Sequence record: KP869102
DNA length: 64,000 nucleotides
Source: Escherichia coli O157 typing phage 4
Direction: 5' to 3' (one strand)
Shown piece after piece: positions 2,287-18,779 of this stretch. Each line of letters begins with the position of its first letter. Within the stretch, counting starts at the first letter, position 1. The notes under the pieces are model-generated. The model searched no databases. It had not been told where the DNA came from and saw only the letters and a program-made list of their open reading frames with translations. The translations under genes were made by a program, and so were the position numbers.

Positions 2287-2618
2287 TACGCTTCCTCGTC
2301 GTCTAAGTAATCATCAAGAGAGGTGAAGATTTCACCGAAGTATTCTAAGATTTCTAGCTCACGTGTGGTGCAGCAAACATAATCGCCTTGGTCGTCCTTA
2401 ATAGTGGCCTCTTTACCCAGAATATCTACTTCAAGTTCATCGTTCAACAGGACGGCCCCTGTGTAAACTTTGTCAGCTGTGCAGTCCCGAAAAGCAGAGT
2501 CCTTCTCCAGATAGTCTGGCTTAACCTTGGCTTTAATTCGTTGGTATTGTTTGGTCATTGTTGTGGTCCCCTTTCGTTTTGATAGGACCATTGTATTAGG
2601 TCCTATCGCTGTTGTCAA
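2286..2618 (-). CDS. hypothetical small protein, paralog of 2622-2876
   Basis: ORF track 110 aa; shares AFRDCT and KDDxGD motifs with the neighbouring ORF. Confidence 0.5.
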   Translation of the reverse strand: MTTAIGPNTMVLSKRKGTTTMTKQYQRIKAKVKPDYLEKDSAFRDCTADKVYTGAVLLNDELEVDILGKEATIKDDQGDYVCCTTRELEILEYFGEIFTSLDDYLDDEEA

Positions 2619-2621
2619 GTA

Positions 2622-2876
2622 TTAATGTTCAGGTTTTACAAAAACGACTTCATTAACAGTGCACCAGACAGAGTCTCCTTCATCATCTTTAAAGGTAAGG
2701 CACTGTGCTGAGTTTTCCAGCTCATCGATCTCTTCTTGTGATAAAGGGGCCCCTTCTTCCAGAAGGGCTTTTACCAGAGGGTTCTCACAAAACTCTGCTT
2801 CATAAATTGCACCGACTGTGCAATCTTTAAAAGCTCGGTCATTTGCAACGCATTCTGGCTTCAAAGTAATTTTCAT
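2622..2876 (-). CDS. hypothetical small protein, paralog of 2286-2618
   Basis: ORF track 84 aa; AFKDCT and KDDEGD motifs. Confidence 0.55.
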   Translation of the reverse strand: MKITLKPECVANDRAFKDCTVGAIYEAEFCENPLVKALLEEGAPLSQEEIDELENSAQCLTFKDDEGDSVWCTVNEVVFVKPEH

Positions 2877-2952
2877 CTTGGCAGTCTCCTTAGTTATTTA
2901 AAAATCACCGATCTGTTTGTGTGAAGCATCTTATATCTAATCTTACTTCTTG

Positions 2953-3351
2953 TCAATGGCTATTTTCAATCAGCCACACAGGGTCGAGGTAAATTTGTTG
3001 GCGTGTTGCCCAATGACAAACTTCATTGTACATCTGAATCTCTTTGTCCGTCAGTTCACGAATAGGCTCATCTATACCCTCATTTTTGTGGTAATCCCAG
3101 TCGGCATCGATTTCCCACAGCCATGACTTGTTGTCACCACGCTTACGCACACAGAAGTCACCGGGACGGCCTGCCAATGCATTTAAGAACTCGTTCTCCG
3201 CTCGCTCTTGGAGAATACTAAGGAGCAAAACGTTAGAACATGACCGTAGAATATGCTTCAGCTCACAATCATCAATCTCAACTTCAATACGTTGTTTGAC
3301 TGTGTGGGTACCTTTTACTAACATCCTACCTCCTCTAAACGAACTCTGCAA
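2953..3351 (-). CDS. hypothetical protein
   Basis: ORF track 132 aa. Confidence 0.5.
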   Translation of the reverse strand: MQSSFRGGRMLVKGTHTVKQRIEVEIDDCELKHILRSCSNVLLLSILQERAENEFLNALAGRPGDFCVRKRGDNKSWLWEIDADWDYHKNEGIDEPIRELTDKEIQMYNEVCHWATRQQIYLDPVWLIENSH

Positions 3352-3529
3352 GGGTTGTGTTGTTCACTGCACCGCAGTAAATGGAGTATCCCAGCCCATT
3401 AGAGTGCAGAAACCACGGCGTGCCGAAATTATCTTTCACGTAGACATCACCGTTGCTTGTAAAGGGCCAATATTCTTCACCAAGGGTGAAATACCTACTC
3501 ATACCCTCAGCCAGATACTTTACTTTCAT
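3335..3529 (-). CDS. hypothetical small protein (paralog family with 3526-3753 and 3750-4124)
   Basis: ORF track 64 aa; shared G..W[FY][IL] and LA[EK]FV motifs. Confidence 0.45.
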   Translation of the reverse strand: MKVKYLAEGMSRYFTLGEEYWPFTSNGDVYVKDNFGTPWFLHSNGLGYSIYCGAVNNTTLAEFV

Positions 3530-3753
3530 AGGCCCTCTTCAACAGCTACAAACTTGGCAAGCAGGGTGGTTCCGTAGATATGATACTCACCGTTTGCCAG
3601 ATGGGAGATAAACCAGGCAATCCCTTCCTCGTCTTTAATCATCTTGTTTGCACGATTTTTATCGTAATAAACCTCGTAGGTCTTTCCTTCTTTAAAGAAT
3701 GACAGGTCTGTCATCTTTTCTTCTACAAAAGTAGCTTTAACCAAAGTTGTCAT
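3526..3753 (-). CDS. hypothetical small protein (paralog family)
   Basis: ORF track 75 aa; KDEEGIAWFI motif. Confidence 0.5.
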   Translation of the reverse strand: MTTLVKATFVEEKMTDLSFFKEGKTYEVYYDKNRANKMIKDEEGIAWFISHLANGEYHIYGTTLLAKFVAVEEGL

Positions 3754-4124
3754 TGATCGGTCTCCTTCTTGTTAAGTCTGAATACTGCAATAATAGCATT
3801 CCCAAGGTGCAGTGTCAAATCATTTCCAAGATACCACAACATTCCACGGTCATCTTTAATGAAAGGGTAACAATCTGGTGCCTTCCAGACATTGTACACT
3901 TTCCCAACCTGAAAGAAATCAGGCCCTGTTGGGATTTTGGTGCCAGGCCACACTTGGGATACCTGAACACACTCCACCTGCATAATAACAGGAATAGTCA
4001 TGGATGTAAATGTTTTTGTTGGTTCTACTACCATAAAAGTCTCCTCTTTGCTTAACAGCACCTCCCTGTGCTGATAGTTTACATTAGTGACAATCACCCC
4101 AGTTACGACCACACAAGTATTCAC
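3750..4124 (-). CDS. hypothetical protein (paralog family)
   Basis: ORF track 124 aa; KDDRGMLWYL motif. Confidence 0.5.
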   Translation of the reverse strand: MNTCVVVTGVIVTNVNYQHREVLLSKEETFMVVEPTKTFTSMTIPVIMQVECVQVSQVWPGTKIPTGPDFFQVGKVYNVWKAPDCYPFIKDDRGMLWYLGNDLTLHLGNAIIAVFRLNKKETDQ

Positions 4125-6861
4125 CTGTGATCTGGAACGGGACTCCCATCATTTTAGAAGCTTGCCAGAAGCAATGTACCACCATCTCGCCCACAGGGCT
4201 CCAGATAAGTTCAAGCTTTCCGTCATCGTTCAGGATAGGATCGTACACCGTGTTTCCGTCTCTGTCAACCACTTCGTTTCCGTTTTCATCCTTGCGTGCC
4301 TTTTTGTACTTATGACCGTCGAACACATGAAGTTTGGCCTCCTGCTCTGCCTTAAATGCTTCCAATTCTTCAATTGTGTCGAAGGTGTACACAGTCTTAT
4401 ACTTCGGTGTGTCAGGTACTTGAAGCTGATATTCGTCATGGTAATAGATAATACGACGAACACCTTCATCGTACCACCCACGCTTCACCATTTGGTGGTG
4501 CATAAGTATCCCAACTAAGTCACACAGCGATGCACCACCATTCTGTTGGTATGCATTAAGTAAAGAGTGTTTAGATCGGGTCCAGATGGCATGACCATCA
4601 AAAGAGTAGATAAACTTCTTACCCGTTGCTTCCCAGAATTTCTCCAGATCCTCTTTACGCCCCTTAAGACCAGGGTTGGCATCCCAAAGTGCATCGATCA
4701 CCCTTTGTCCCAACTCTGGAGAGATGTCCAGCATATCTGCAACTTTATCTTTTTGTGCCCCGTACATAACCCCATACGTGATAGGTTTACCGTCGTTACG
4801 AGACACCTCTCTGCCTGCTACTTTTGTATATGCCTCAGCATTGTTTTGGTGTGCGTCCCCGTTACTTACAACATCATAATACAAGCCGTTGTCGAACTCA
4901 AAGGCACCCCAAGCCCCGATAAGCTGCTCTAAGTTGGACCCGTCAATACCGATCTCAAAGTATCCTGGAGGAACACCCCACAAGCTACGCATCTCTTTAC
5001 CCATAACCACTTTAGGAGAGGGTTTAGGCATGTTTGCACAAATACTGTGTTTCTGTCTGGAAGTGTTTGTTAATCCAGAGCTTTTAGCAGGAAGCTTATG
5101 GTCAATCTTCAAACGTGGGTGATTAAGAAGACCAGTGTCAACCTTATCCTCCTTGATTGGATCAAGTACCGATCTGCGGTTTCGCAATGATAACCATAAG
5201 ACGATATCTTTAGCCATCTCTCCGTTCAATTTTTCAAGATTCGGACACAGGTGTCCAAACGTATCTTTCAGTTGCGGAGAAGTAATAAGTGCCCTAGCTT
5301 TTCTACGTATTTTCCCGAATACTTCCTTTTTAATCCTTTCGGAGTTAGGAAAGCTTCGGAACTTGTGCACGGTTGTCTGGAACTTAGCATCAGTTTTGTT
5401 CCAGAAGTTGATAATTAGGTCACAATACTCTGACTCTAAAAGCTCGTCCATATATGCATATACTCGTGCATCAACATCTGCATCAGGTAGAGCTTTCTTC
5501 TTGCTGTCTTTAGTTACATCCTTAGTTCTCCACATTGTCGGAAGCCAACCAGCACTGATCAGGTATCGCTTAATGTCGTCCTGATTGCTGATTTTCATAG
5601 GTATCTTGCAGTCCGGCATTCGCTTCTGCTGTAGATCACTTATTGCCTGATCCATTAGCTCTTTAGGTAAAGGTTGTGGTGTGGAGGTGCCCTTAATATA
5701 ACCTCTCAAGAAATCAGCCATCTTGTCGGGGTCTTTGCAGCCCATCTCTTCGCACCATTTTATCCCCATCTTGCTGACATCTCCTGTGGAGGTAAATGCT
5801 CGCTTAGGCGGGGCTTTGAACTCTAAAGCGCTCATGTCTACAGGATAGCCAAGCTTATCTTTTAACCATTTCCAACCATTATTGGAGATTGTCCCATCTT
5901 GGTTAAACGGCTTTTCAGGGAACTTGGGCCGCTGAGACATTGACAGCTCTTTTAAAGGTAGTTGTGGTTCAACACGATCAGCTATTTCTTTCATCCACGC
6001 ATCACAACGGTCACGTAAAGCAATAGCTCCATCTATGTCAAAATACACACCCTGACGGGCCTGCAGCTCCATCAGGAAGTGCTGCAGCATGCCTCGGCGT
6101 AGTGCGTTCTTCCAGGTGATCTTCTTGAACCCTTTCGGCTTCTCTTTGGCAGGATCGTACATAAAGTTCTGCATGTCAGATTTGCCGTAGAATACACCTT
6201 TTGATTCCGCTACCAGCTCTTTCCAGAGCAGCTCCTGGATGATAACGTCCTCGAATACACGATCCACATACTTCCACAATGGAAGATCGCGCCAGTCATC
6301 AATTTGAACTTTCTGGTTACCAAGGGCGTAGCCCCATGCCATAAGGCCGTGAGGACCAACAGGCTGCATTTTCTTAGTAACCGGGTTGAATACAGAGTCC
6401 GGACAACCTTTTGGTAAAGGGCGATCAGGCCACAAGATTCGGCTCATCGCCAACGTATCAAACAGATTAACCTGGTGGTCGTTGATAGTCCCCATGCATT
6501 TAGGATCACGGAACATATCAAAATGAATACCGGATAATCTTTCCATCAGCATAAAGTCATAACTGTAGCAGTTATGGCAGTTCAAAGCTGTTGGTGACCA
6601 GTCGGAATTTCCTGTAAGCCAACCTTCCAACTCCGAAAAATCTGCTATGCGAACTTCAAAATCTTTATAAAGAGTTTTCTTTGCCAGAATAAAGTTCTTA
6701 GCCTTCTCTATATCCTCCTCGGAGTAGTGTGTGCGGTCATTTAGAGGAAGGAACAGCATAAAACGGTTCTTATTCAGCTCTTTAAACAGGCCGCAATGAT
6801 AATAAAGATCTGGGTCTTCCAAGAGCCCGGAGGCCTCCAGATCGAAGCACCAATTACTCAT
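4084..6861 (-). CDS. DNA polymerase, family A (Pol I/T7-like) with 3'-5' exonuclease domain
   Basis: 925 aa; exo motif FDLEASG; polymerase motif A-like DGSNLEQL, motif B KPITYGVMYG, motif C YYHDEYQ. Confidence 0.9.
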   Translation of the reverse strand: MSNWCFDLEASGLLEDPDLYYHCGLFKELNKNRFMLFLPLNDRTHYSEEDIEKAKNFILAKKTLYKDFEVRIADFSELEGWLTGNSDWSPTALNCHNCYSYDFMLMERLSGIHFDMFRDPKCMGTINDHQVNLFDTLAMSRILWPDRPLPKGCPDSVFNPVTKKMQPVGPHGLMAWGYALGNQKVQIDDWRDLPLWKYVDRVFEDVIIQELLWKELVAESKGVFYGKSDMQNFMYDPAKEKPKGFKKITWKNALRRGMLQHFLMELQARQGVYFDIDGAIALRDRCDAWMKEIADRVEPQLPLKELSMSQRPKFPEKPFNQDGTISNNGWKWLKDKLGYPVDMSALEFKAPPKRAFTSTGDVSKMGIKWCEEMGCKDPDKMADFLRGYIKGTSTPQPLPKELMDQAISDLQQKRMPDCKIPMKISNQDDIKRYLISAGWLPTMWRTKDVTKDSKKKALPDADVDARVYAYMDELLESEYCDLIINFWNKTDAKFQTTVHKFRSFPNSERIKKEVFGKIRRKARALITSPQLKDTFGHLCPNLEKLNGEMAKDIVLWLSLRNRRSVLDPIKEDKVDTGLLNHPRLKIDHKLPAKSSGLTNTSRQKHSICANMPKPSPKVVMGKEMRSLWGVPPGYFEIGIDGSNLEQLIGAWGAFEFDNGLYYDVVSNGDAHQNNAEAYTKVAGREVSRNDGKPITYGVMYGAQKDKVADMLDISPELGQRVIDALWDANPGLKGRKEDLEKFWEATGKKFIYSFDGHAIWTRSKHSLLNAYQQNGGASLCDLVGILMHHQMVKRGWYDEGVRRIIYYHDEYQLQVPDTPKYKTVYTFDTIEELEAFKAEQEAKLHVFDGHKYKKARKDENGNEVVDRDGNTVYDPILNDDGKLELIWSPVGEMVVHCFWQASKMMGVPFQITGEYLCGRNWGDCH

Positions 6862-7592
6862 ACTGTCTCCTCCTGTGTCTTCTCAGCATTCTTTCTTGCA
6901 GCTATTGCATCGTCCCTGTTCTTGAAATACCCAAGGCATTTCCTTTTACCATCTACATAAATTCTGGCTACCCATCTTTCATGGGTTTTATCCCAATTCA
7001 CCCCTGAGCAACCGCTGGTGTTATTATACTGCACGGCTCTTCCACTCTTGTGCGAAAAACCATTATCTTCGAAGAACTTTCTTGCCCACTCTGCCTCTTC
7101 AAAAGTTCTGTACTGGCCTAGCCAGACCCTTTCACCTACAGAGTCTGTGCCTTGAGCTACCCACGCCTCTCTTTCTTCAGAATAGTGCACCCCGACCCTG
7201 CCAGATTTGTTGTTGCTACGAGGTATCTTGCAACTTTTCTTTTTGTTATCTGTAGGTTCGAGTAGTTGCAAATTTTGAATACTGTTGTCAGCCACACCAC
7301 CTGTTTCCCTTATCTCCTTGATGTGGTCAACCTCATACCCTTCTGGTACAGGACCGTTAAACATTTCCCAGATTATAACGTGGGCACCTTTAGTGCAATG
7401 CTTTCCTAGACTAACCACAGGCCTGCCATCAGCATCTTGCCCCTTGTCAGCTCTGGAGCCTGCTGAAGTTTTAACATATCCTACACCGCTGCCTGCCAGA
7501 ATGTCTATCTTCCAAAAAAGATTTTGACCGTCATACTCCAATATTTCTGACCACAAGTGATTGGCTACACAGTGATCTCTGAACTCGTTCAT
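6858..7592 (-). CDS. HNH homing endonuclease with two AP2 DNA-binding domains
   Basis: 244 aa; HNH_3-like VIIWEMFNGPVPEGYEVDHI...NLQLL; two AP2-like repeats (GVHYSEEREAWVAQ, GVNWDKTHERWVARI); free-standing between pol and primase-helicase. Confidence 0.85.
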   Translation of the reverse strand: MNEFRDHCVANHLWSEILEYDGQNLFWKIDILAGSGVGYVKTSAGSRADKGQDADGRPVVSLGKHCTKGAHVIIWEMFNGPVPEGYEVDHIKEIRETGGVADNSIQNLQLLEPTDNKKKSCKIPRSNNKSGRVGVHYSEEREAWVAQGTDSVGERVWLGQYRTFEEAEWARKFFEDNGFSHKSGRAVQYNNTSGCSGVNWDKTHERWVARIYVDGKRKCLGYFKNRDDAIAARKNAEKTQEETV

Positions 7593-7650
7593 AAAGTGTT
7601 CTCCTTAAAGGGGAGGCGGTTGTACTACCCCTCCCACTCTTTGTTAAACA

Positions 7651-9729
7651 TTAAAAAGGTGTTTCATCATCCTCAAAACCAGGAACATGGTCAGAGGACG
7701 GATCATCGTACTGGAGGTCTTCCTGCGTGTCAACAGGCTTAACAGTAGGAGTTACAACCTTATCAGCCACAACCTTACCCATAGGTGTTTCTACAACTGC
7801 ATGCTCCTGATCCTCAAACATAGCCTGAGGTCTCCAAACAACCTCCCCACCTTCTCCATCTGTAAACATTTGCATTTCTTTGTCCCAGTACCAATTACTG
7901 GCATCATGGAACTTACCTGTATGTGGGTCCATAACCAAAGTGTCTGCAATACCTAAAGTTTTTGCTGGACGGTTTTTAAGACCTACCAGTCGGACACGCC
8001 CACGAGAACGATCCACCATTTCTTCGGCCTCGACACCTATGACTACCCAACTCAACTGTTCAAGCCCAGCCGATCCTCGCAAATTCTCTTTTCGCACAGG
8101 ATACCAGAAAGGTAACGGGTTACCATCCTTGTCCTTAGGAGGCACAATCTCTGTACGTTTGAGGTGAGCGATCACCAAGATAAACACATTGAACTGCTTA
8201 CAAAACGCAGCCAGCTGGGTCATAGCCATGTCCAGTTCTTTTCGCTCATCCTTAACATTAAGCCCCGAAATTACCATGGACAGGTGATCCAGCACAATAT
8301 AACGGCAATGGTACAGGCAAACCATTTGCTTAAGCTTGGTAATCAACTCGTCCACCGGAATAGACCCGAAATGTTTGAACACTTTGATTTTTCCAGCTTT
8401 TGCCCATGATTGGTGAATCTCTGCGTGTTCTTGATCAGTTAAAAACTGGCTAGGATCTTCAACAAACTCTTTAACATCAAACCCTAGCTGGTTTGCATAC
8501 AAGGAGTTAATTGCTTCCTCTGGGTCCTCCTCAAGATGGATCATGCATAGACGATCATCCTCTTCATAGTCATCGGCCTTCGGGCATGTCGGGTCCATCA
8601 AGTATCTTGCAATACAATGTTCCAGTTTTTTAGCTACAGTTGTTTTACCGCCCCCTGATGGCCCTGTAAGCATTACGAGTGTCCCTTTGTGCAAGCCTTT
8701 TAGCATTTTTTGCAGTTTTGGAAACTCTGCGCTGATATCTACCCCGTTGGAAGTCTTTTTCCGCAAAGATTCGATAGAGAAGTCTTCTAAATCCGACACA
8801 GCATCAGGCACATACTTAACAGGATGCCGGAACATGTTTACAATATCTTCCAGCTTTTTAGCCTTTAGCATGTCACGGATATCTTTTACACCGTCAGGAT
8901 CGTTTACCTCACCGGGGTATTCTACGTGGTAAACGTTATCAGCCATCAAAAATGCTGCGATATTGTGCGTGGCCTCAACACCTTTAATGACGTGTTTTTG
9001 CTTCTCTACCTCGTTAGCTGCATCGTTATCCATTGCCAGCACAACTGTTCCATAGCTACGGATAAACTTCTCATTGTTTGCAAAAGTATCTACTGCGTTT
9101 GCACATCCACAGTTAATTCCAACAAAAGGCAGGCATGGTTTTCCTGCCAGATCGCCACCGTTGATAACTGCATCGATCCCGTCCTGGACCTCTTTAGCCC
9201 ACTGTTTCACCTTTGCCGGGGCTTTAGCGTTGGTGAGAATCCCTTTTACTTGTATCTGATATGCAGCCTGCCATGCTGCAATAACATCACCTTCTCCCTC
9301 ACAAACGTTAATCTGCTTACGGTTGTTGGAAGATGCACACAGCTTTTGACCAAACATCTGAGAGTTAGCCTTTACTATGCCAACAACGGAGAAATGGCCT
9401 CTTTGCTCTTTAGGAATCGTCCAGTCACGCTTTTTGAAACCGGACAGATTTCCGTAGCGGTCGTAATATGGGAAATATGTTGCAGTGACTGTCACACCAT
9501 CTTCTTGGGATAATGCTGATCGCACACCAAAATATTGTGCAGCCATCAGACCGATATTTTGTTGTGGGACAGGGACAATTTTAGTATTTTCTAAAACAGT
9601 CTCTACAGTTTCAACTTCTTTTTCATCACGATAGTCTCGTTTCACACTTCCCCCACTTTTATACTTAGTTGCTTTCGGGTTTGGCTCACCGAAACGGTTG
9701 TATGCAGATGCCATAAATTTACTTCCCAT
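7651..9729 (-). CDS. bifunctional primase-helicase (T7 gp4-like: TOPRIM primase + DnaB-family helicase)
   Basis: 692 aa; TOPRIM VCEGEGD and MDNDAANE; Walker A TGPSGGGKT; Walker B IVLDHLSMV; acidic C-terminal tail ending in Phe. Confidence 0.9.
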   Translation of the reverse strand: MGSKFMASAYNRFGEPNPKATKYKSGGSVKRDYRDEKEVETVETVLENTKIVPVPQQNIGLMAAQYFGVRSALSQEDGVTVTATYFPYYDRYGNLSGFKKRDWTIPKEQRGHFSVVGIVKANSQMFGQKLCASSNNRKQINVCEGEGDVIAAWQAAYQIQVKGILTNAKAPAKVKQWAKEVQDGIDAVINGGDLAGKPCLPFVGINCGCANAVDTFANNEKFIRSYGTVVLAMDNDAANEVEKQKHVIKGVEATHNIAAFLMADNVYHVEYPGEVNDPDGVKDIRDMLKAKKLEDIVNMFRHPVKYVPDAVSDLEDFSIESLRKKTSNGVDISAEFPKLQKMLKGLHKGTLVMLTGPSGGGKTTVAKKLEHCIARYLMDPTCPKADDYEEDDRLCMIHLEEDPEEAINSLYANQLGFDVKEFVEDPSQFLTDQEHAEIHQSWAKAGKIKVFKHFGSIPVDELITKLKQMVCLYHCRYIVLDHLSMVISGLNVKDERKELDMAMTQLAAFCKQFNVFILVIAHLKRTEIVPPKDKDGNPLPFWYPVRKENLRGSAGLEQLSWVVIGVEAEEMVDRSRGRVRLVGLKNRPAKTLGIADTLVMDPHTGKFHDASNWYWDKEMQMFTDGEGGEVVWRPQAMFEDQEHAVVETPMGKVVADKVVTPTVKPVDTQEDLQYDDPSSDHVPGFEDDETPF

Positions 9730-10513
9730 TAATTCTGCTCCTTACTACAGGCTCGTTTGCTAAGAATACGGCTTTTGCCCAGCCACGTGGTGTGAGGCTT
9801 CGAATCATCTTCGTTCTTGCACTCTTTCCACCCAGCTTGGCGTGTTGCATGGAATACCCGCTAACCACGTCAACTATTTGCGGGACAGGTTTTGTGGCCG
9901 GGATTATAAATCCATTACCTATCCAGCCGCAAGTTATTTTTGGATAGGCATCACGTGGAGCTATAAATTCAGGAAACCATGGGTTTACATCATCTTCCGG
10001 TAAATACCCGCCATAGTCAGAAGGATGAAAACGGTAATCAGGTTTGCGCCACAGTGTGGACATAACACCTACAGGATTCTCTACATGCCACGGGCAATCG
10101 TAAATCTCTCCCAGCTCTTCCGCAACCCGAGCATCCCTTACAGCATTAATTTGGATCATGGGGTCCTTAGCCAGCTTTTTCTTAAAATGTGCAGCACCTG
10201 ATACCGCTAAATGCGTGCACGGAGGAAATGCAAGAATAAAGTCTGGAGCTGGGTACATGCAAAAAGTTTCCTGAGGGAACCATGGGTCAATCCAATAATC
10301 CACATAGTGAATGTTGGGATGATCGGTTATCACCTCTGCATAACTGCCGTGATCAGCACCTTCTGCATTAAAGCACAGGCACAGATACCCAGCTTTTGCC
10401 CAGTCAATGACTGCACCACCAGATCCGTCAAATAGGCTCCACACAACACCTTTGTGGTAGTGTTCTTTGTAGATAAATTTCAATTTGCTGTCTCCTAATG
10501 CAAAAAGCCCCAC
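9719..10513 (-). CDS. short C5-cytosine methyltransferase-like protein (no obvious target-recognition domain)
   Basis: Motif I-like LFDGSGG, motif IV-like FPPCTHLAVSG, motif VI-like ENPVGV; track start is GTG inside an upstream hairpin, TTG near 10483 with AGGAGA RBS is more likely. Confidence 0.6.
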   Translation of the reverse strand: MGLFALGDSKLKFIYKEHYHKGVVWSLFDGSGGAVIDWAKAGYLCLCFNAEGADHGSYAEVITDHPNIHYVDYWIDPWFPQETFCMYPAPDFILAFPPCTHLAVSGAAHFKKKLAKDPMIQINAVRDARVAEELGEIYDCPWHVENPVGVMSTLWRKPDYRFHPSDYGGYLPEDDVNPWFPEFIAPRDAYPKITCGWIGNGFIIPATKPVPQIVDVVSGYSMQHAKLGGKSARTKMIRSLTPRGWAKAVFLANEPVVRSRINGK

Positions 10514-10534
10514 CCTTTCGGGCAGGGCCTAGTG

Positions 10535-11017
10535 TTAAACCCGGATACCTATTGTATACTCGGTGGATACCAATGTCAAATCTAAATTTAAAATTTCTTG
10601 CATCTCATAATATGCGTCCAGGGTGAGATACATTTCCCCATCCTTTTCTACATACTTGTCCAAGTGCTTGAGGCATTTCGGATAACTATCGAGTGCAGCT
10701 TTCAGACACTCAAACTCTGTGCTGTTGATGAGTCCTTCCATCTTGGCTACCCGTTCTGGGGTAACGATAGCACTGTAGTGAGATTTAGCTTCCTGAATGC
10801 AATGGGTCCAAGCATCAACTTTCTCTTCGAAAAGCCCGAAGAATTTCTTTTTGGTGAGCTTCAGATTCTTTAAGTGCTTAAGCACTCGGTTGCCGATCAC
10901 AGCCACATCACGAAACTTAAGGATCACTTTGTCGATATCCTCGCGGCCTATTTTCACAAAGCAAGCCTCACACATTTCAGGAGCTGCGTAACCTACTTTC
11001 CACATAAAATCTGACAT
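10535..11017 (-). CDS. hypothetical protein
   Basis: ORF track 160 aa. Confidence 0.5.
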   Translation of the reverse strand: MSDFMWKVGYAAPEMCEACFVKIGREDIDKVILKFRDVAVIGNRVLKHLKNLKLTKKKFFGLFEEKVDAWTHCIQEAKSHYSAIVTPERVAKMEGLINSTEFECLKAALDSYPKCLKHLDKYVEKDGEMYLTLDAYYEMQEILNLDLTLVSTEYTIGIRV

Positions 11018-11029
11018 AACACTATCTCC

Positions 11030-11428
11030 TTATTCTTCCTGAAAAGCAACGATATCATATGAACTTGCAGACGATCCTGGTGAAGAATGACTCCAGTCTA
11101 GGTCATCAGAGTAGTCAGCGTACTGTGCACCACTACGTAGTTTATATTTTACCCACTTACCTGGTGCAGGGTTTTCACCACCTTCCCATACTTCCCAGCC
11201 TTCTGGCAGGCCGTCCTGGGAATAGTCATCCACCTCACTAATAATCTTAGGGTTTGGCACCAAGATCCCTGCAGGCTCTTCCTTCCGGATAAGTGTCCAC
11301 ACAACGTAGGTGTCTGAGCAGGCGCATGATAGCAAAGTATATCCACTATTCAGAACTTCTGCAAGCTCTTTTTCAGCATCTTCCAATTTGGTTAAGTGGT
11401 ATTGGAGAATCTTCACACCTGTAATCAT
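11030..11428 (-). CDS. hypothetical protein
   Basis: ORF track 132 aa. Confidence 0.5.
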   Translation of the reverse strand: MITGVKILQYHLTKLEDAEKELAEVLNSGYTLLSCACSDTYVVWTLIRKEEPAGILVPNPKIISEVDDYSQDGLPEGWEVWEGGENPAPGKWVKYKLRSGAQYADYSDDLDWSHSSPGSSASSYDIVAFQEE

Positions 11429-11772
11429 CAGAAACCTCCCACTTCTTCGGCAAATGCAGCTGCTGTCGTCGCTGCATCCAGATAGGACTCTAGTTCACGG
11501 GCTGCACGTTTGTAAATTGAGTGGCGAATATCGTTTGGCAGTTGGTGGAAGTCCACCTCTTCACCGTTGTGGTAAACATGCACATCAGTGATCTGTCTAA
11601 ATCCGTAATAGTCAACATCAGAATCACGGCACTCCGGGTCTGGCAACTGGACAACTGCCTGAGCTTCTACAGTGAACATATCGTCAAGTTCGAAATCGAT
11701 TTCAAAAGTGTATGGTTTATAACGTTTCATCATTTGATTGTACTCTTTATTGATCAGACTTATCTTTCGCAA
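11428..11772 (-). CDS. hypothetical protein
   Basis: ORF track 114 aa. Confidence 0.5.
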   Translation of the reverse strand: MRKISLINKEYNQMMKRYKPYTFEIDFELDDMFTVEAQAVVQLPDPECRDSDVDYYGFRQITDVHVYHNGEEVDFHQLPNDIRHSIYKRAARELESYLDAATTAAAFAEEVGGF

Positions 11773-13072
11773 TTAAGGTCGGGGCAAGTTTGTAATAACG
11801 GAAGCCACCACCACCTTGCCAGTTTACAGACTTAGAAATACCACCTTGATCTTCCCCATCGATCACTTTTTCCAAGCGCGGAATAATATGGGTATGGCAA
11901 TGATCACCAATCTCGATGGAGATCCAACGTCTTTTCATCTTGTGAGCTACAGCGGCAGTAGTTCCCGAACCACCGAATGAATCCAATACCAAATCACCTT
12001 CTCGCGTACACATTTCGAAAATCCGCTTCAAAAGCGCTTCTGGTTTTTTCCCATTTTTGAAACTAACGCCGCCTTCATTTGCTATTCCATTCCAACTAAT
12101 GTCTGTCCAAACATCAGTTATTAGTTCCGCAGGTTGCATATCACCGTCAATTTCCAAAAGCCTGTTGGAGTAAAAGACCATTTGCCTACCATTTGCGATA
12201 TAAAATCCTTCAACATCCTCATTTGGATGTACATAAACCTTATCCCTATCTTTCTTTGACTTCTCTATAGTTTCTTTTCTCTTTATTTTAGCACCACCAC
12301 CAATTGCAACAGATTGAAATACACGTTCTGCATTATCAATTGCAAATTGTGCTAATTCATCATCGAATGTGTCAGGCAGTTTTTTCTTGGCTTCTTTTGC
12401 ATCTTTATAGCCATTGGCCTTTGCAAACGCATCGGCAATACCGCACCACGTCCAATTTTTATAATGATCATCCGGGTTTAATAGGTATTTGTTATATCCG
12501 GTATCATACCCTTTAGGTATATAGATTTTGTTAAGCGGTTTCTGGGTGCGATCTTTTGCATATACAAGCAAAAAGTTTGCTGTGGAGAAAACTGTGGCTC
12601 CTGTTGCCTTAAATCCCGAAGGGGAATTTGTGGTCATCGATATGGTATTTAACTGATTTGCACGACCAAAAATCTCGTCCATCAAAACTTTTAAATACGC
12701 CATTTCGCAATCATCTAAGTGAACGAATATTACCCCGTCATCACTTAGAAGATTACGAATTATTTCTAACCTATCCCTCATTAAGCCCAACCAAATGGAA
12801 TGCTCCAGACTATCATCGTAGTGCTCAAAAGCCCTCCCGGTGTTGAATGGTGGGTCTATGTAAACACACTTCACTTTGCCTGCGTACTCTTGCTCTAGCG
12901 CCTTCAATGCTAATAAGTTATCTCCAAAAATCAGCTTATTATCAAAAATATCGTTTTCGGTAACTCTCTGGCTGTGGTAAGACTTACTCGAATCTTCTAA
13001 CAAAATGTGCGGCTCTAATTTTTTGCGCTCGTTTTTACCTATCCAGGTAAGTTCTAATTTGGTTTTGCTCAT
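11747..13072 (-). CDS. DNA amino-methyltransferase (N6-adenine or N4-cytosine), beta-class motif order
   Basis: 441 aa; motif IV VYIDPPFNTG near N-terminus, motif I DSFGGSGTT near C-terminus. Confidence 0.8.
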   Translation of the reverse strand: MSKTKLELTWIGKNERKKLEPHILLEDSSKSYHSQRVTENDIFDNKLIFGDNLLALKALEQEYAGKVKCVYIDPPFNTGRAFEHYDDSLEHSIWLGLMRDRLEIIRNLLSDDGVIFVHLDDCEMAYLKVLMDEIFGRANQLNTISMTTNSPSGFKATGATVFSTANFLLVYAKDRTQKPLNKIYIPKGYDTGYNKYLLNPDDHYKNWTWCGIADAFAKANGYKDAKEAKKKLPDTFDDELAQFAIDNAERVFQSVAIGGGAKIKRKETIEKSKKDRDKVYVHPNEDVEGFYIANGRQMVFYSNRLLEIDGDMQPAELITDVWTDISWNGIANEGGVSFKNGKKPEALLKRIFEMCTREGDLVLDSFGGSGTTAAVAHKMKRRWISIEIGDHCHTHIIPRLEKVIDGEDQGGISKSVNWQGGGGFRYYKLAPTLIAKDKSDQ

Positions 13073-13133
13073 CGTTTGGTGCTCTCCTTAGTTTTTTGTG
13101 GGGAGGAGGCCTCCCCTTTATACTCACATCTTA

Positions 13134-13475
13134 CTACTCAAGGTCTTCAGAGTCAAGCTCAAAAAGAATCAAACTGTGCATGCCTGCAGAGAGATCAACA
13201 CACCCTGCAACAATAAGGGTCTGATAGTAAGGTTCAGCACCCTCGATGTCTTCGTTAAAATCCACAACAAGGTAGTCACCTTTGTTAAAGGTGTATTTGT
13301 CCGATGTGAATGCAAAACCTGCCCAGTCCCCTACTGCAGGATCTTTATCAGTCACCTTTGTTAGCAGTAGATCTTTTTCACGAGATCTTTTAGTAAAATC
13401 GTGAATCACAACATCCTTCTCTTCAGGAGTTGGATTGCCACACACGTAGTTAACGATATTTCTCCACAAACTCAT
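13134..13475 (-). CDS. hypothetical protein
   Basis: ORF track 113 aa. Confidence 0.5.
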   Translation of the reverse strand: MSLWRNIVNYVCGNPTPEEKDVVIHDFTKRSREKDLLLTKVTDKDPAVGDWAGFAFTSDKYTFNKGDYLVVDFNEDIEGAEPYYQTLIVAGCVDLSAGMHSLILFELDSEDLE

Positions 13476-14842
13476 ACGTCCCCCTCTTCGGCTCTGGTTT
13501 CAAAATCTTTCCTGACAATTTTGTCTAAGTCAGGGAATGTTGTATTGTAAAACTCTACGACTCGCGGGTCAACAATAATGTCAACTTCTCTTAGTGGACG
13601 CAACAAGTTTATTCCTTGTATTGTCTTAACTCTGCTCAAAGCGACATACGTCATCCCAGGAGAGAAAGCTCCGTTCTTTCCAAGGTCTAGGTTGTAACAA
13701 TCTAGCGTAAGTCCTTGACTTTTATGAGATGTTACGGCGTACCCAGATTTCAGAGGAAGTTGCTTGTATGACCCAATCACTACCCTCTCTATAAACTTCT
13801 CCATCTTCCTTTCTGCAATGTTGTATCTCTGAGATGGCTTATACTCGTTATTCTCCCACAACCTCTGCTCTATGTCAACCTGTGTTCCATCTTCAAGCTC
13901 TACCACCACCGCCTTGTTCTTAAATTTAACAATTGTGGCACGTGTTCCGTTAACATAATAAGGTACTTTGTGCGTCGGGTCAACATCGTTGGCGGTTATC
14001 ATAACTTTCATGCCAATTTTCAACTTCATCTCCTGCTCAACTGGCAGGGTGGAGGGAAACTTACCCTTCATTTCCCCAGTGTATACCTTCTCCGGGGCGT
14101 TGATGGCATCATAGAACCTTCTGTTCACTTCCTCTGCTTGTTTGTTGGTGGCGCAAATTGTGAGAGCGTCTGTTGGTACACCGCCTTTGTAACAGCGAGC
14201 ATTAAGTTCTGCTACAACCTCTTTTATGCGACGACCCTCACGAACACAGTTGAGCATTGTGGCAAATCGAATAGACTCCTGTCGGAACTGATCTATTAGG
14301 GCTATGTTGTGGAGGTCAAGCTCTTTCCAAGATTCGGTATAGCAACACAGGTCTGTATGGTAGAAGTTGAAGTAGGCTTCCTTCTCCATAGAAGAGACAA
14401 CAGGAGGTGCCTGGTAAAAATCGCCAAACAATATGACCTGTATGCCTCCGAAAGGTTTGTCATTTTTTCGAAGGAAGCGAAGTTTCCTATCCATCTCTAT
14501 AAACTTATCAGCACGGATCATAGAGATTTCATCGATAATCAGGATGGTAAATGCCTTGCTTTTCAAAGGCTTTGCTGTTTTTGCCCTTATTGCGGTCCAG
14601 TCTGACTCCATGCTCACACCTGCTGCAAGATCGAAGGTTCGGTGTGCTGTTGCTCCATTAACGTTTAAAGCGGCTACCCCTGTCGGGGCAACCGTTATGC
14701 AAGAGTCTCCATACATTGACTGGATCATGTTGATGAGGTACGTCTTCCCACAACCTGCGGGTCCTGAAACGAAGACATTCTCACCGCTCATGATTGCAAC
14801 GAGGGCAGCATCTGTGCCTACATCATACTGCCCTTTTTCCAT
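13472..14842 (-). CDS. SF1 DNA helicase, Dda/Pif1/RecD-like
   Basis: 456 aa; Walker A GPAGCGKT; IIDEISMI; C-terminal YAVTSHKSQGLTLD. Confidence 0.85.
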   Translation of the reverse strand: MEKGQYDVGTDAALVAIMSGENVFVSGPAGCGKTYLINMIQSMYGDSCITVAPTGVAALNVNGATAHRTFDLAAGVSMESDWTAIRAKTAKPLKSKAFTILIIDEISMIRADKFIEMDRKLRFLRKNDKPFGGIQVILFGDFYQAPPVVSSMEKEAYFNFYHTDLCCYTESWKELDLHNIALIDQFRQESIRFATMLNCVREGRRIKEVVAELNARCYKGGVPTDALTICATNKQAEEVNRRFYDAINAPEKVYTGEMKGKFPSTLPVEQEMKLKIGMKVMITANDVDPTHKVPYYVNGTRATIVKFKNKAVVVELEDGTQVDIEQRLWENNEYKPSQRYNIAERKMEKFIERVVIGSYKQLPLKSGYAVTSHKSQGLTLDCYNLDLGKNGAFSPGMTYVALSRVKTIQGINLLRPLREVDIIVDPRVVEFYNTTFPDLDKIVRKDFETRAEEGDV

Positions 14843-16047
14843 TACGCCTCCTCGTAAAGAATGTCGATAGTGTTACCGTCTCGGTCAACCACGTATTCAA
14901 TCGGGTCTCCGTCCTTGCGTGCTTCCGGAGCTACCACAATCTCATAGCGGCATGCACGGCACTTAGCGCTATTGTGTTGGTATGGCACACTAACCACATC
15001 TGCAGGGTCAACCATGACAGTCATTACAGTGCCGTAGCTCTTCGCATACTCTTTGCTGGCGCAGTGTAAGCCATAGGAGCACGCAGCTTCAGGATCATCC
15101 TCTACAAAGTTACGAGGCATGGATACAAAAGCACCTTGGTATTGTGGGACTTTACCACTGTGCCAATCCACCCACTTGCTACCGTTAAACTGAACCCCTT
15201 TGTAGCAAATGATTCGACCATCTTCTGCAATCTGAATATCATTGGCCTGCATAAAATCGTAGAGCATGTTTACAGATTTTGCAGAAGGATTGCGTAGCAG
15301 GCGAACGAGGAATTTCACATAGCGGTCATCCAGCGTTCCGTCTGCATAATCTTTCTCAATTTTCTTTGCAATGGTGGATCGCATCTCTACACCGTAGTAG
15401 TAGAGCTTACCATCTTTCATGATCAGGTTGTCTGCAAGTGTGGTGAACTCATTCTTGCGTTCCAGCCAGACAAGGATTTCACCAATTGCCTCGTCATATT
15501 CCTGAACAGAGATATGGTCGAAGACTTTCTGGTAAACTTCCTCACTTTCGCTGCGGCGAATTTCAAAAATGCCTTCGTTGCAGGTGATCTGGAGGAGTTC
15601 CCCACAAATAACTACCAAAGGCTCGATGCTTCGAGTTTGTTGCTGAGACACACTGCTCACCACCTCCAGCACCGGATCTTTGACTTCTACTAAAGGTTCT
15701 TCTGACTTGATTGCCACCCCAGTGAACCCCACACCGTGAACAACACACAGTGGGTATACCACGCCCCAACGTTTAACGGAACCTTCGCCTAAGTCTAAGA
15801 TCATGGCGTACTTACCATTATCTTCCAATCCATAGCGGAATAAACGGGCCTCTTCGCGGGTTTCAAAATCCTCACGGGTGTAGCAGACGCTGTCACGGTC
15901 AGGATCGAACAACTCTGGGGCACCCACTGCCAGTGTCCAGGTTGTGTCGCCTTTCTCAATGGCACATGTGAAACCCTTCTTCTCAAGTTCTGCACGGCGG
16001 TCTCGTGCTTCTTTACGGGTTTTGAAATGTTCGTAGATGAAAATCAT
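14842..16047 (-). CDS. hypothetical protein, putative rIIB-like (by position next to rIIA-like gene)
   Basis: 401 aa; ATG with AAGGAGA RBS; the contig overlap places it directly downstream of the rIIA-like gene; no diagnostic motif. Confidence 0.5.
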   Translation of the reverse strand: MIFIYEHFKTRKEARDRRAELEKKGFTCAIEKGDTTWTLAVGAPELFDPDRDSVCYTREDFETREEARLFRYGLEDNGKYAMILDLGEGSVKRWGVVYPLCVVHGVGFTGVAIKSEEPLVEVKDPVLEVVSSVSQQQTRSIEPLVVICGELLQITCNEGIFEIRRSESEEVYQKVFDHISVQEYDEAIGEILVWLERKNEFTTLADNLIMKDGKLYYYGVEMRSTIAKKIEKDYADGTLDDRYVKFLVRLLRNPSAKSVNMLYDFMQANDIQIAEDGRIICYKGVQFNGSKWVDWHSGKVPQYQGAFVSMPRNFVEDDPEAACSYGLHCASKEYAKSYGTVMTVMVDPADVVSVPYQHNSAKCRACRYEIVVAPEARKDGDPIEYVVDRDGNTIDILYEEA

Positions 16048-16120
16048 CTTGGTCTCCTTATTTGATGTTATTCTTTGTATCGATCAGTTCACGGTATTCA
16101 ATCATAGCAGGAGTGTCCCA

Positions 16121-16130
16121 NNNNNNNNNN
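16121..16130. other. assembly gap (N10)
   Basis: Run of 10 N. Confidence 0.95.
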
Positions 16131-16440: not shown

Positions 16441-16450
16441 NNNNNNNNNN
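16441..16450. other. assembly gap (N10)
   Basis: Run of 10 N. Confidence 0.95.
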
Positions 16451-16605
16451 GCACGATTGCATACCTTTGACAGATAATCTCATTACAGAGCGTTTAAGAG
16501 CTTCCTACAAACAAATCTCTCTTTCGAGCGTAGCGAGAACGCACGTCCGTTTTGACCCAAATCACCATACGCTCGGATTTTAACCAAACCCTCGCGGCGT
16601 TTCTA

Positions 16606-16634
16606 TTGACACATTACCGCTCCAGTGATAATAT
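16606..16634 (+). promoter_or_regulatory. sigma70-type promoter (TTGACA-17-TAATAT)
   Basis: -35 TTGACA at 16606-16611, 17-nt spacer, -10 TAATAT at 16629-16634; ATG at 16667 follows. Confidence 0.5.
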
Positions 16635-16666
16635 CCACACATAGTTTGTAGAATATGGGGTACACT

Positions 16667-16756
16667 ATGAGAACATTGTCCGAAGTTTTGGTGGTGATCC
16701 TGATGATCATTACGTCCATAGCGGCTGTTGCCGGAATACTCACGGGTGGAACATGA
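16667..16756 (+). CDS. hypothetical 29-aa hydrophobic micropeptide
   Basis: Manual ORF MRTLSEVLVVILMIITSIAAVAGILTGGT just downstream of the promoter; weak RBS. Confidence 0.35.
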   Translation: MRTLSEVLVVILMIITSIAAVAGILTGGT

Positions 16757-16965
16757 TAAACACACATGCATCTGAAGAGACATCCAAAGGAGTGACTATA
16801 TGTCCCTTGGCTGAGCCAGTGAAAGAGGAAAACTTCGATTCTGAAGATTCTCCATCTTCGCTCCAGGTAGATCCTGAGGCTGATGACCTAACGTGGGAAG
16901 ACATCGTAGATATCTGGTTCTCTATTATGCCTGAGCACGAAGAGTTCAGGGGTGGTAGACTATGA
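16753..16965 (+). CDS. hypothetical acidic protein
   Basis: ORF track 70 aa; same strand as promoter; no clear RBS. Confidence 0.3.
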   Translation: MINTHASEETSKGVTICPLAEPVKEENFDSEDSPSSLQVDPEADDLTWEDIVDIWFSIMPEHEEFRGGRL

Positions 16966-17086
16966 AGCACCGAGCCCACACAGGTTCCTCATGCTAAAGC
17001 ATGGCCTGAAGAGGCAAACGTGCATAATTCCTGTACATTGGGACGTATAAAACCCTGTTCACATTCTCATTTCCAGAGGAGATTTC

Positions 17087-17302
17087 ATGAAGATAGAAAT
17101 ATTTGGTGGAGCTGACAATACTCGTGGCCTGATTTACCTTGAATTCGATGAATCATACCTGCCAGAGGTGTTAAATATGGACTCTGTTGCTGATGCTTTG
17201 GGAGTAAGTCCTAAAGATCTCTACTCTGGTGCTGAGATTGATGGTTGGGAGGAGACCATGAACATTGATTTCAGTGAAGTAGGTGATGAACCACTGGACT
17301 GA
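17087..17302 (+). CDS. hypothetical acidic protein
   Basis: ORF track 71 aa; RBS AGGAGA upstream of ATG. Confidence 0.5.
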   Translation: MKIEIFGGADNTRGLIYLEFDESYLPEVLNMDSVADALGVSPKDLYSGAEIDGWEETMNIDFSEVGDEPLD

Positions 17303-18142
17303 CACACAATTAGCTACCCGGCTAAAGTGCTGGGAGCACCTATAACACATCTTTCAACTAAATTTCCTACCACCACAATCACTTACCTCCCACACATGAC
17401 TGTTTGCTTGTTTAGTGAGCAGTCATGCCTTGACATTCTTGCCTATCCTGATAAAATTAAGTTCTTCTCTTTTCTTTTACCGAGTAATTCGGGTTTTCTG
17501 TTCTCTTCGGTTTGAAGGGGTATGGAGATACACCTGAGTGAACAGGGTGAACAACCGAACATTTGGCTATGGCATTAGCATGGCGAAGCGGACGGGTGAC
17601 GAAAGAGGGGCCGGAGGACACCAGTCACTGCCATATGGTATATGGGTGATAACCTGAAGAGTCTGAATAAGTGTTTAAGTACCAGTCAGAGGAAAAGGTG
17701 AATGGTAGCCGAAGGGGGAGGGGGGTTTCTTGTATCTTTAATTTGTATATTATGTATACACTTGTAAACCAATCTCATTTGAATTTGTTTACCACACAAA
17801 GTGGATAGAGACAAATATTACCTATTAAACTTGAATTATTTATAGAAAATACCACAACACTACTTAAGTCTTTGATTTTACACACAAATCCTGCAGATAT
17901 TCACCCTCCATATTTAACATACTTGTAACATATTCCATACTCTACCTGCCCGATCAATTCACCCAACTACATCCCCATATTTTCCCTGTCTGTACTACCC
18001 CTGCCCCGCCGGGAGTCCCGTCATATCTGGCTTTCCAGCAAATATCACACCCACAAATATCATTGCCTGAAGAGGGTTTCGTCCCATAATACATGCCTTA
18101 CCTGAAGAGCGCTTCATATACCCCGTAAATTTTTTAATTGAC

Positions 18143-18172
18143 CCCCTCCCCGCCGCCGGAGGGGTCGGCTTT
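18143..18172 (+). terminator. possible intrinsic terminator hairpin (weak T-run)
   Basis: Stem CCCCTCC/GGAGGGG with loop CCGCCGCC followed by TCGGCTTTTCC. Confidence 0.25.
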
Positions 18173-18719
18173 TCCCACACAGACCTGAAGAGTCAGCCAG
18201 AAATATCTGAATGGACCCAATTCTGCCCTGTTATGAGCCGTAGCGACTGGAGTGCTGCCAGGCGGACGAAATGGGAATACTTCTCATTCTTATAACAATT
18301 CTCAAATATCGAGGCAGTGAGGCAAATTAATAGGTAAGGCCGTTCACATAGTGGCACAACATTTGCAGTCTATCTGATGTGGTTGAATGAGAATACCTAT
18401 CATTGTGAGAATAGTTATCATTACGGGCAATTTAACATAATACCCATTATGCGCACCACTGGCGATACATACAGGGATTGATAACATGAGTTACTGTTTA
18501 CGCATATAACAATTATATTTCTTATCATTTGTGTGGGATATAGTTAGCAGCCGATAGATTAGATATTGACCTGCGGACTTCTGACCGTCTAGACGTCTAA
18601 ACGCCCACACAACAAGGCTTATACATACATCGCTGAATGTAAACATGGCCGCAAAAATGCTACCATACAAGATTGTAAATTTTTCATGCAGCACTTGACA
18701 AAGAGGAGAAAAACTTGTC

Positions 18720-18762: not shown

Positions 18763-18779
18763 TTAATTGACATGCCTGA

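Follow-up and report, generated by a model that had tools for sequence, protein, structure and literature searches.

A cluster of five genes was analyzed in a stretch of 64,000 nucleotides (nt) of Escherichia coli O157 typing phage 4 (record KP869102); the stretch at its full length is called the window. The initial annotation had described, between positions 9719 and 13072, two methyltransferases bracketing three unknown open reading frames (ORFs), and all five ORFs are found there, on the minus strand. They are named ORFs A to E in order of rising coordinates, and they are co-directional and tightly packed, with a primase/helicase gene on one side and a Pif1-like helicase gene on the other. 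The analysis makes it quite probable that ORFs A and E are orphan DNA methyltransferases that are independent of each other and differ in age and origin, in the replication module of a Vequintavirus, and that the genes in the middle form no functional bridge between them. The features of the locus, all on the minus strand, are the following.

7651-9729, minus strand: primase/helicase gene, a flank directly downstream of ORF A, with an 11-nt overlap
9719-10483, minus strand: ORF A, predicted compact Dcm-like cytosine-C5 methyltransferase of 254 amino acids with a likely TTG start; read from the GTG at 10513, the mechanical ORF has 264 amino acids
10505-10530, minus strand: GC-rich hairpin with a GAAA loop, followed by UUUUU (-21.8 kcal/mol, z -3.9), between the stop codon of ORF B and the ribosome-binding site of ORF A
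10535-11017, minus strand: ORF B, 160 amino acids, phrog_12900, confined to the genus Vequintavirus, unassigned function
10551-10579, minus strand: sigma-70-like promoter match, TTGACA-17-TACAAT (11 of 12), within the 3' end of ORF B, upstream of the hairpin and ORF A
11030-11428, minus strand: ORF C, 132 amino acids, acidic (isoelectric point, pI, 4.4), phrog_11995
11428-11733, minus strand: ORF D, 100-101 amino acids, acidic (pI 4.5), synteny kept across Vequintavirinae genera
11738-13072, minus strand: captured DNA segment, about 94% identical at the nt level to a type III mod gene of the E. coli chromosome, from which it derives
11747-13072, minus strand: ORF E, 441 amino acids, predicted beta-class N6-adenine methyltransferase, a C-terminally truncated type III modification subunit (Mod) with no restriction subunit (Res) as partner
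13100-13156, minus strand: leader signals, namely a promoter-like match (13156-13128) and a short GC hairpin (13116-13100), which is weak (-13.8 kcal/mol, z -1.6)
13134-13475, minus strand: acidic ORF of 113 amino acids, a flank, not a Res subunit
13472-14842, minus strand: Pif1/Dda-like helicase gene, a flank, not a Res subunit

Positions 9500-13300 of the window are 100% identical to Escherichia phage JES2013 (NC_022323/KC690136), an rV5-related Vequintavirus, and 97-99% identical to about 100 further records. ORFs A to D are intact in about 115 phage records, and the ratio of non-synonymous to synonymous polymorphism (pN/pS) relative to phage ECP26 is low for all four (A 0.04-0.05, B 0.04, C 0.14, D 0.04), and on account of this conservation and these low ratios they are taken to be real genes and not chance ORFs. 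The two methyltransferases are orphan enzymes of familiar types, and public records already contain annotations for them: in MaxBurger, a BASEL phage (98.6% identical), ORF A is labeled 'Dcm-like C5 cytosine methyltransferase', ORFs B to D 'hypothetical protein' and ORF E 'putative N6 adenine methyltransferase', and the RefSeq labels for A and E are 'DNA methyltransferase' and 'methyltransferase'.

The motifs I, IV and VI of C5-methyltransferases, which had been noticed in a protein of 254-264 amino acids, are indeed present in ORF A as FDGSG, PPC and ENP, and the predicted fold is that of a C5 enzyme. In the numbering of the 264-amino-acid reading, which is used throughout, motif I (FDGSG, 28-32) is conserved in the family and aligns with motif I of M.HhaI and DNMT3B, the Asp of motif III lies in WID, motif IV is FPPC (PPC 97-99), with a C99 that is invariant in the family alignment and falls on C81 of M.HhaI by hhalign, and motif VI (ENP, 145-147) is likewise invariant in that alignment. 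Among 245 sequences of the Dcm-like family, PPC occurs in 205 and ENP in 233. Their median length of 234 amino acids bears out the earlier remark that the protein is unusually small, and the close homologues, of which there are more than 3,550, have 219-262 amino acids. ORF A matches PHROG 757 ('DNA methyltransferase') at 5.6e-87 over residues 10-261; 2,002 clusters (50% identity) match the family at E < 1e-3, and a tblastn search with ORF A retrieved 1,504 of 50,697 phage records, which include Escherichia, Klebsiella, Salmonella, Vibrio and even Arthrobacter phages. No close DNA match to ORF A was found in E. coli genomes, and the gene is an old core gene of the subfamily that always adjoins the primase/helicase.

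Sequence similarity to characterized C5 enzymes is confined to the N-terminal motifs. Two relatives that are 55-56% identical to ORF A (P0054, 24.7 bits; P0069, 28.5 bits) lie above the 22-bit cut-off of PF00145, in motifs I-IV only; phmmer and the family profile reached DNMT3B (E 0.18) and M.HaeIII (E 0.42) in the PDB, both below threshold and again in motifs I-IV; and hhalign with M.HhaI aligned motifs I-IV only. The C-terminal 82 residues used alone as a query gave no match, and there is no sequence match to the canonical motifs IX or X. The AlphaFold2 model of the full protein (predicted local distance difference test, pLDDT, 83.8; predicted template modeling score, pTM, 0.85) has exclusively C5-methyltransferases as its top structural matches. 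Foldseek retrieves DNMT3A/B at E ~5e-6, and DNMT3 is regarded as the nearest structure because the compact layout is shared. The C-terminal part of ORF A consists of a motif VIII-like strand (194-199) with K192 (equivalent to K175 of the phage K42 enzyme described below), about 43 residues, and a single helix (243-263) in which 'LTPRGWAKAVF' has a motif IX-like appearance; the residue at the K247 position varies in the family (K, R, L, E, Q and others). Just before the motif VIII-like strand, the family alignment and the model reveal a nearly invariant insert of about 30 residues. The initial view that the protein is too short for a target-recognition domain (TRD) thus holds in that a large TRD is lacking, and needs amending in that about 43 residues follow the motif VIII-like strand and an insert of about 30 residues precedes it.

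Experimental evidence is available for one member of the family. The 711-bp dcm gene of phage K42 (KarlJaspers/Bas06 strain) is the trigger of retron Ec86; expressed from a plasmid and with no other phage gene, K42 Dcm raised the level of 5-methylcytosine (5mC) on the multicopy single-stranded DNA (msDNA) of the retron, as determined by liquid chromatography coupled to mass spectrometry (LC-MS), and the mutant C82A/E128A/K175A/K176A was inactive (10.1101/2023.08.16.553469). ORF A is 54% identical to KarlJaspers Dcm over 235 residues (E 4e-86), and C82, E128, K175 and K176 of the K42 enzyme align with C99, E145, K192 and I193 of ORF A. By analogy, ORF A is to be regarded as a genuine minimal cytosine-C5 methyltransferase, one of the two possibilities raised initially; the 5mC activity itself has been demonstrated only for the 54%-identical K42 Dcm, which makes 5mC alone from a plasmid. 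The Dcm-like copies in phages and in a prophage lie in early or replication regions, often beside a phage adenine methylase, and no nuclease is found near them.

The start codon of ORF A is likely to be the TTG at 10483. The mechanical ORF of 264 amino acids (9719-10513) begins with a GTG that sits in the 3' arm of the terminator-like hairpin, and thirty bases downstream of this GTG, the TTG is preceded at a distance of 7 nt by an AGGAGA ribosome-binding site; this start yields the 254 amino acids given by gene callers and by the BASEL annotation. The promoter matches at the locus are matches to the consensus only and their total number is in line with the shuffle expectation; the annotation of phage ECML-10 likewise has a promoter under ORF B. 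The hairpin and the TTG start suggest that expression of ORF A may be low, which would fit an enzyme reported to be toxic if over-produced (10.1101/2023.08.16.553469). The same order of promoter-like match, GC hairpin, ribosome-binding site and start codon occurs twice on the minus strand (10483-10579 and 13072-13156), with a strong hairpin only before ORF A. The leader at 13100-13156 serves ORF E here and ORF D in phages that lack ORF E.

ORF E is a beta-class amino-methyltransferase with a DPPF motif, as had been proposed: it matches PF01555 at 1.6e-42 and contains DPPF at 73-76 and FGGSG at 366-370, and it is assigned to the beta class because motif IV precedes motif I with the TRD between them. 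The distance of about 1.2 kb from ORF A that had been given agrees with the measured ~1.23-1.26 kb. The best solved relatives of ORF E are type III Mods (6k0w from H. pylori, 1e-28; 4zcf, EcoP15I, 3e-24), and with the PADLOC MTase_III model PDLC03636 the match (6.8e-205) is limited to positions 2-444 of the 575 in the profile. The source was uncovered when 5,426 complete E. coli genomes were searched at the DNA level: in 24 of them, a chromosomal gene is 94.4% identical over nt 1-1318 of the 1326 nt of ORF E. In E. coli 2014C-3011 this parent gene encodes a Mod of 568 amino acids that covers the full profile, and a Res of 912 amino acids is encoded directly after it (PF04851; REase_III 9e-191). 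ORF E is identical to residues 2-440 of this Mod at 423 of 439 positions (96%), including the whole TRD, and lacks the 128 C-terminal residues of the host protein. The defense island of 2014C-3011 that holds this Mod-Res pair (NZ_CP027591.1, 5062284-5071633) lies at tRNA-Sec between setC and yicJ and also carries a mad1-like helix-turn-helix gene, a DrmD-like SNF2 helicase of 964 amino acids, AbiD, an unknown protein of 206 amino acids, and ArdA and integrase remnants.

Both junctions of the captured segment are visible. The insertion took place exactly at the start codon of ORF D, with ATGA on both sides. At the 5' junction, ORF E makes use of the leader and ribosome-binding site that serve ORF D in the Vequintavirus phiWec189, where the site is cleanly empty. 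At the 3' junction, the homology to the host gene reaches 11738, beyond the ORF E stop codon; compared with the host gene, 11 nt are deleted near the 3' end, which shifts the frame into the TAA at which ORF E ends. The 13 codons that precede the ATG of ORF D (window 11734-11772) are host mod codons in their original frame (…INKEYNQ-MMKRY…), and this leftover host frame, which runs straight into ORF D, explains why ORF D had been read as a protein of 114 amino acids. Thus, of the sizes given earlier for the three middle ORFs (160, 132 and 114 amino acids), those of B and C are correct, whereas ORF D starts at ATG 11733/11730 and has 100-101 amino acids. The tblastn matches to the longer reading at residues 12-114 come from phages with a second E allele, and only the type that matches at residues 15-114 (phiWec189) lacks ORF E. 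Before the 11-nt deletion occurred, the captured fragment may have encoded a Mod-D fusion. The direction of transfer was from host to phage, because the host gene is full-length and the phage retains out-of-frame host codons past its stop.

ORF E is present in 87 phage records, compared with ~115 for ORFs A-D, so that about 76% retain it and about a quarter do not, and it is missing from the syntenic loci of other genera. The second allele, in phage ECP26 (MK883717.1, 407-1750), encodes 447 amino acids that are 96% identical. It breaks off at the same point of the parent gene, its 3' end differs, and a spacer of 59 nt separates it from ORF D. The ratio of non-synonymous to synonymous substitution rates (dN/dS) is 0.067 relative to the host gene and 0.021 between the two phage copies (12 synonymous and 1 non-synonymous changes), and the latter value indicates that the truncated gene is maintained by selection in phages. 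The catalytic domain is complete, because the alignment of ORF E with M.MboIIA (260 amino acids) stops just 18 residues short of the C-terminus of that enzyme. A Res gene is not present beside ORF E: its neighbors are the 113-amino-acid ORF and ORF D, and the nearby helicase is Pif1-like and not of the ResIII type. Type III Mod subunits methylate DNA in the absence of Res, and ORF E is probably a captured 'antidote' methylase.

From the homology, the fold, the catalytic motifs, the capture with its junctions, the presence or absence in relatives, and the purifying selection, we infer enzymatic activities, target sites and a protective role as follows. ORF A would act as a self-sufficient C5 enzyme dependent on S-adenosylmethionine (SAM), with catalysis by Cys99 of FPPC and Glu145 of ENP, and would place 5mC on replicating phage DNA, possibly at CCWGG by analogy with the sole relative that has been tested. 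ORF E, as a recent capture of the first ~440 codons of a host type III Mod with the catalytic domain and the TRD retained, would methylate adenine at N6 at the sites of the parent host system, and the progeny DNA would enter the next cell pre-protected against the cognate Res. The most likely role of the two methyltransferases would thus be that the phage pre-methylates its own DNA.

Several points weigh against this picture. ORF A itself has no match to PF00145 at E < 0.1. For the compact Dcm, the site CCWGG has only been assumed from analogy with E. coli Dcm; the sole support is that Ec86 defense was lost when the CCTGG in the msDNA stem was changed (10.1101/2023.08.16.553469). The variable loop between motif VIII and the C-terminal helix is 'GYSMQH' in ORF A and 'NPGW' in the K42 enzyme. 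CCWGG is the most under-represented of the 1,024 5-mers in the window, with 108 occurrences compared with 151 expected (observed/expected, O/E, 0.72), and since avoidance of a fully protected site would not be expected, this counts against full protection. Few E. coli strains have the matching type III system (0.4% of complete genomes), whereas ~76% of Vequintaviruses keep ORF E, and activity of the truncated Mod is a prediction. In the searchable literature, no methylation data were found for this phage or for any Vequintavirus. Lastly, Vequintavirinae have been described as 'exceptionally susceptible' to the restriction-modification systems tested in BASEL (PMC8594841), so that any protection must be narrow.

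The chance that CCWGG is the target of ORF A is put at about even. CCWGG is not depleted in KarlJaspers (O/E 1.11), which carries the tested enzyme, nor in a T4-like phage, and the counts were discarded as a test of specificity because the lack of depletion in KarlJaspers makes them ambiguous. The resistance of Klebsiella phage KP36 to EcoRII (PMC3620542) was also set aside as a lead to the specificity, as it is confounded by host Dcm. In the whole window, several palindromes are strongly avoided, namely TGGCCA (0 observed vs 8.1 expected), CGATCG (0 vs 8.4), GGCGCC (0 vs 4.8), CTAG (64 vs 126) and GTAC (132 vs 202). An alternative that we regard as doubtful is that the compact family might comprise the smallest self-sufficient DNA C5-methyltransferases and that ORF A reads DNA in an unusual way and not as a simple CCWGG Dcm: the site could be very short or relaxed, recognition could be by a DNMT3-like dimer, or hairpin or single-stranded DNA such as retron msDNA could be preferred. 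Unusual recognition is conceivable because ORF A differs from the sole tested member precisely in the loop at the position of the TRD. Separately, and as a speculation, the loss of the C-terminus of ORF E might also keep it from binding Res, or the truncated Mod might in addition poison the type III complex of the host through Mod dimers incapable of binding Res.

The three middle ORFs had been described as being devoid of recognizable motifs, and ORFs B, C and D indeed gave no Pfam, NCBIfam or PADLOC match. ORF B occurs in 115 records, with at least 96% identity throughout, and is missing from the syntenic loci of other genera. The N-terminus of ORF C matches phrog_10384 (1.4e-6) and, by tblastn (1e-4), the loci of two relatives (L008, L009), and this N-terminal domain of ~50 amino acids is kept beside the Dcm-like gene in other genera. 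The model of ORF D (pLDDT 86) consists of a four-stranded sheet and a long helix and has no informative structural neighbor. The 'DNA ligase' label of PHROG 10384 and 10936, which contain proteins like the N-terminus of ORF C and like the 113-amino-acid ORF, was judged to be probably spurious, as the members have only 72-107 amino acids; the label has propagated into the GenBank annotations of relatives.

The earlier wording, by which two methyltransferases bracket the three ORFs, implied a unit of five genes, and such a unit is not supported, given the lineage-specific insertion of ORFs B and E. In a Klebsiella myovirus, an Erwinia Henunavirus and Escherichia phage Av-05, the gene order is helicase, small ORFs, a D-like gene (phrog_4240), a gene like the ORF C N-terminus (phrog_10384), the Dcm-like gene and primase/helicase, and neither B nor E is found at these three loci. 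Because other genera keep this order without B and E, ORF D and the N-terminus of ORF C are regarded as old neighbors of ORF A, and B and E as later insertions. In KarlJaspers and in a lambdoid prophage, the Dcm-like gene has neither D-like nor C-like neighbors, and a phage Dam gene is nearby in both. The surroundings of the prophage copy (E. coli JBRAPV010000005.1, 4494-6747) are of the lambdoid nin type (NinG, RusA, antiterminator), and a phage Dam (PF05869) is encoded two genes before it; a pair of orphan adenine and cytosine methyltransferases recurs in unrelated phages.

It is unlikely that the five genes form one anti-defense module in which B, C and D are partner subunits or regulators, for example, the TRD or motif IX of a split methyltransferase, or DNA-mimic anti-restriction proteins. 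Such a module would be in keeping with the co-directional, tightly packed arrangement of A to E, with the position of the D-like and C-N-like genes immediately upstream of the Dcm-like gene in four genera, with the small size and acidity of ORFs C and D and the 113-amino-acid ORF (pI 4.4-4.5), and with a weak match of ORF D to PHROGs labeled 'DNA methyltransferase' (phrog_1573, 3.6e-5). However, the entire helicase-to-polymerase block is syntenic, so that the kept order may just reflect the replication module, ORFs E and B were inserted at different times, B and A have a terminator-like hairpin between them, and B, C and D lack Pfam, NCBIfam and PADLOC matches and D also a structural match. 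A split enzyme in which D or C supplies the missing part of ORF A was rejected specifically, since K42 Dcm is active alone from a plasmid and the KarlJaspers and prophage copies have no D-like or C-like neighbors. Judged from their sequences, the five genes would not be one functional module, and B, C and D look unrelated to the methyltransferases.

It is quite unlikely that the two methyltransferases are not protective and that they instead serve phage physiology (replication timing, packaging, transcription or host expression), or that ORF E is a non-functional remnant. The high restriction sensitivity of Vequintavirinae despite both genes (PMC8594841) points in this direction, as do the position of ORF A in the replication module beside the primase, the lack in ORF E of the C-terminal 128 amino acids of its parent and its end through a frameshifting deletion, and the rarity of the matching host system. 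However, the specificities of the systems used in the BASEL tests are different ones, so that little follows from sensitivity to them, and a remnant would be hard to reconcile with the strong purifying selection on ORF E between phage copies, with its intact state in 87 records and the shared end point of the two alleles, and with its intact catalytic motifs and TRD. Retention of the exact TRD of the Mod of a restriction system is what the antidote function predicts.

The other possibility raised initially, a fold repurposed for another modification, is very improbable: although E. coli provides carboxy-SAM (Cx-SAM) via CmoA (PMC12783734), the Dcm-like family lacks a canonical motif X and has an invariant Arg243 at the start of the C-terminal helix (of which the equivalence to CmoX R350 is not alignable), and the ORFs beside ORF A are of unassigned function, transfer of a non-methyl group, such as the 5-carboxymethylcytosine of CmoX, or a 5mC first step of a hypermodification completed by B, C and D is opposed by the FPPC of ORF A (SPPC, which together with Arg350 at the M.HhaI Asn304 position and with CmoA and ligase neighbors defines the natural cytosine C5-carboxymethyltransferase CmoX (PMC12783734), occurs in 0 of 245 family members), by the nine genes scanned at 7651-16047, in which no Pfam domain typical of a CmoA-type synthase, a CmoY-type or amide ligase, a TET-like dioxygenase or a glycosyltransferase was found, by the lack of a 2-oxoglutarate-Fe(II) dioxygenase or transferase match, as needed for hypermodification of the TET/JBP type, in B, C, D and the flanks (Pfam, NCBIfam, PHROG), by the small size of B, C and D (100-160 amino acids, no cofactor motifs, the sheet-plus-helix model of D having no enzyme-like match), by the 5mC that the 54%-identical K42 Dcm produces in E. 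coli according to LC-MS, by the restriction sensitivity of Vequintavirinae (PMC8594841), which argues against a bulky genome-wide modification, and by the absence of ORF B from other genera that retain A.

A few observations concern the records and the surroundings. Positions 1-16057 of the window correspond to NC_022323 120854-136910 and positions 16451-26295 to NC_022323 101851-111695, and there are three runs of ten N (16121-16130, 16441-16450 and 26296-26305). The window is thus put together from separate pieces of JES2013, and sequences on either side of an N run are not true neighbors; the A-E region is far from the joins. Sixteen records titled 'Campylobacter phage' (host C. jejuni; MG065xxx) are ~98% identical to positions 9500-13300 and are probably mislabeled or contaminant assemblies. 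An HNH endonuclease gene (window ~6858-7592; ORF211 of NC_022323) lies between the DNA polymerase and primase/helicase genes and is missing there in MaxBurger. No tRNA or Rfam matches were found in the window.

The finding is real but largely ordinary, and its practical value is modest. ORF A is not a mystery fold, as it belongs to a common, annotated phage family with one characterized member, the 5mC activity of which triggers retron Ec86. The presence of ORF E in some close relatives and its absence from others, BASEL phages included, constitute a clean natural experiment. In addition, rV5-like phages are candidates for therapy, and thus the restriction systems against which they are pre-armed bear on their host range.

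A comparison with known systems puts both enzymes into perspective. ORF A shares with K42/KarlJaspers Dcm the membership in PHROG 757, the catalytic Cys, the Glu of ENP and the first Lys of the KK pair, at lengths of 254 and 236 amino acids; it differs in the loop described above ('GYSMQH' vs 'NPGW'), in the second Lys, which is Ile in ORF A, and in its setting, a myovirus replication module compared with a siphovirus early region. In comparison with the PF00145 enzymes M.HhaI, M.HaeIII and E. coli Dcm, ORF A is 70-220 residues shorter and has no large TRD and no motif IX or X that is recognizable in the sequence. The catalytic domains of DNMT3A and DNMT3B resemble ORF A in their compact layout, yet the identity is only 14-17%; DNMT3 has canonical motifs IX and X and forms oligomers with DNMT3L or with itself, and for ORF A the comparison was made from sequence and model alone. 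CmoX (PDB 8yf3; PMC12783734) has SPPC in place of FPPC, ORF A has no neighbor with a CmoA- or CmoY-type domain, and a homologue of ORF A makes 5mC.

ORF E is of the beta class like the type III Mods of 2014C-3011, EcoP15I (4zcf) and H. pylori (6k0w) and is 96% identical to the first of these, and it differs from all in lacking the C-terminal 128 residues and an adjoining Res, in being phage-borne, and in its presence/absence polymorphism in Vequintaviruses. The stand-alone methylases of lytic phages, such as T4 Dam, P1 Dmt and the Dam and Dcm pairs of T1-like phages, are presumed to pre-protect the progeny DNA, and a pair of adenine and cytosine enzymes is found also in KarlJaspers and in the lambdoid prophage. 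Unlike other phage orphan methyltransferases, however, ORF E is truncated and has a traceable origin in one specific restriction system of a host (94% nt identity), and it is this capture and truncation of a host type III Mod, with both junctions and the frame-ending deletion still visible, that adds a new detail to what is known of phage orphan methyltransferases.

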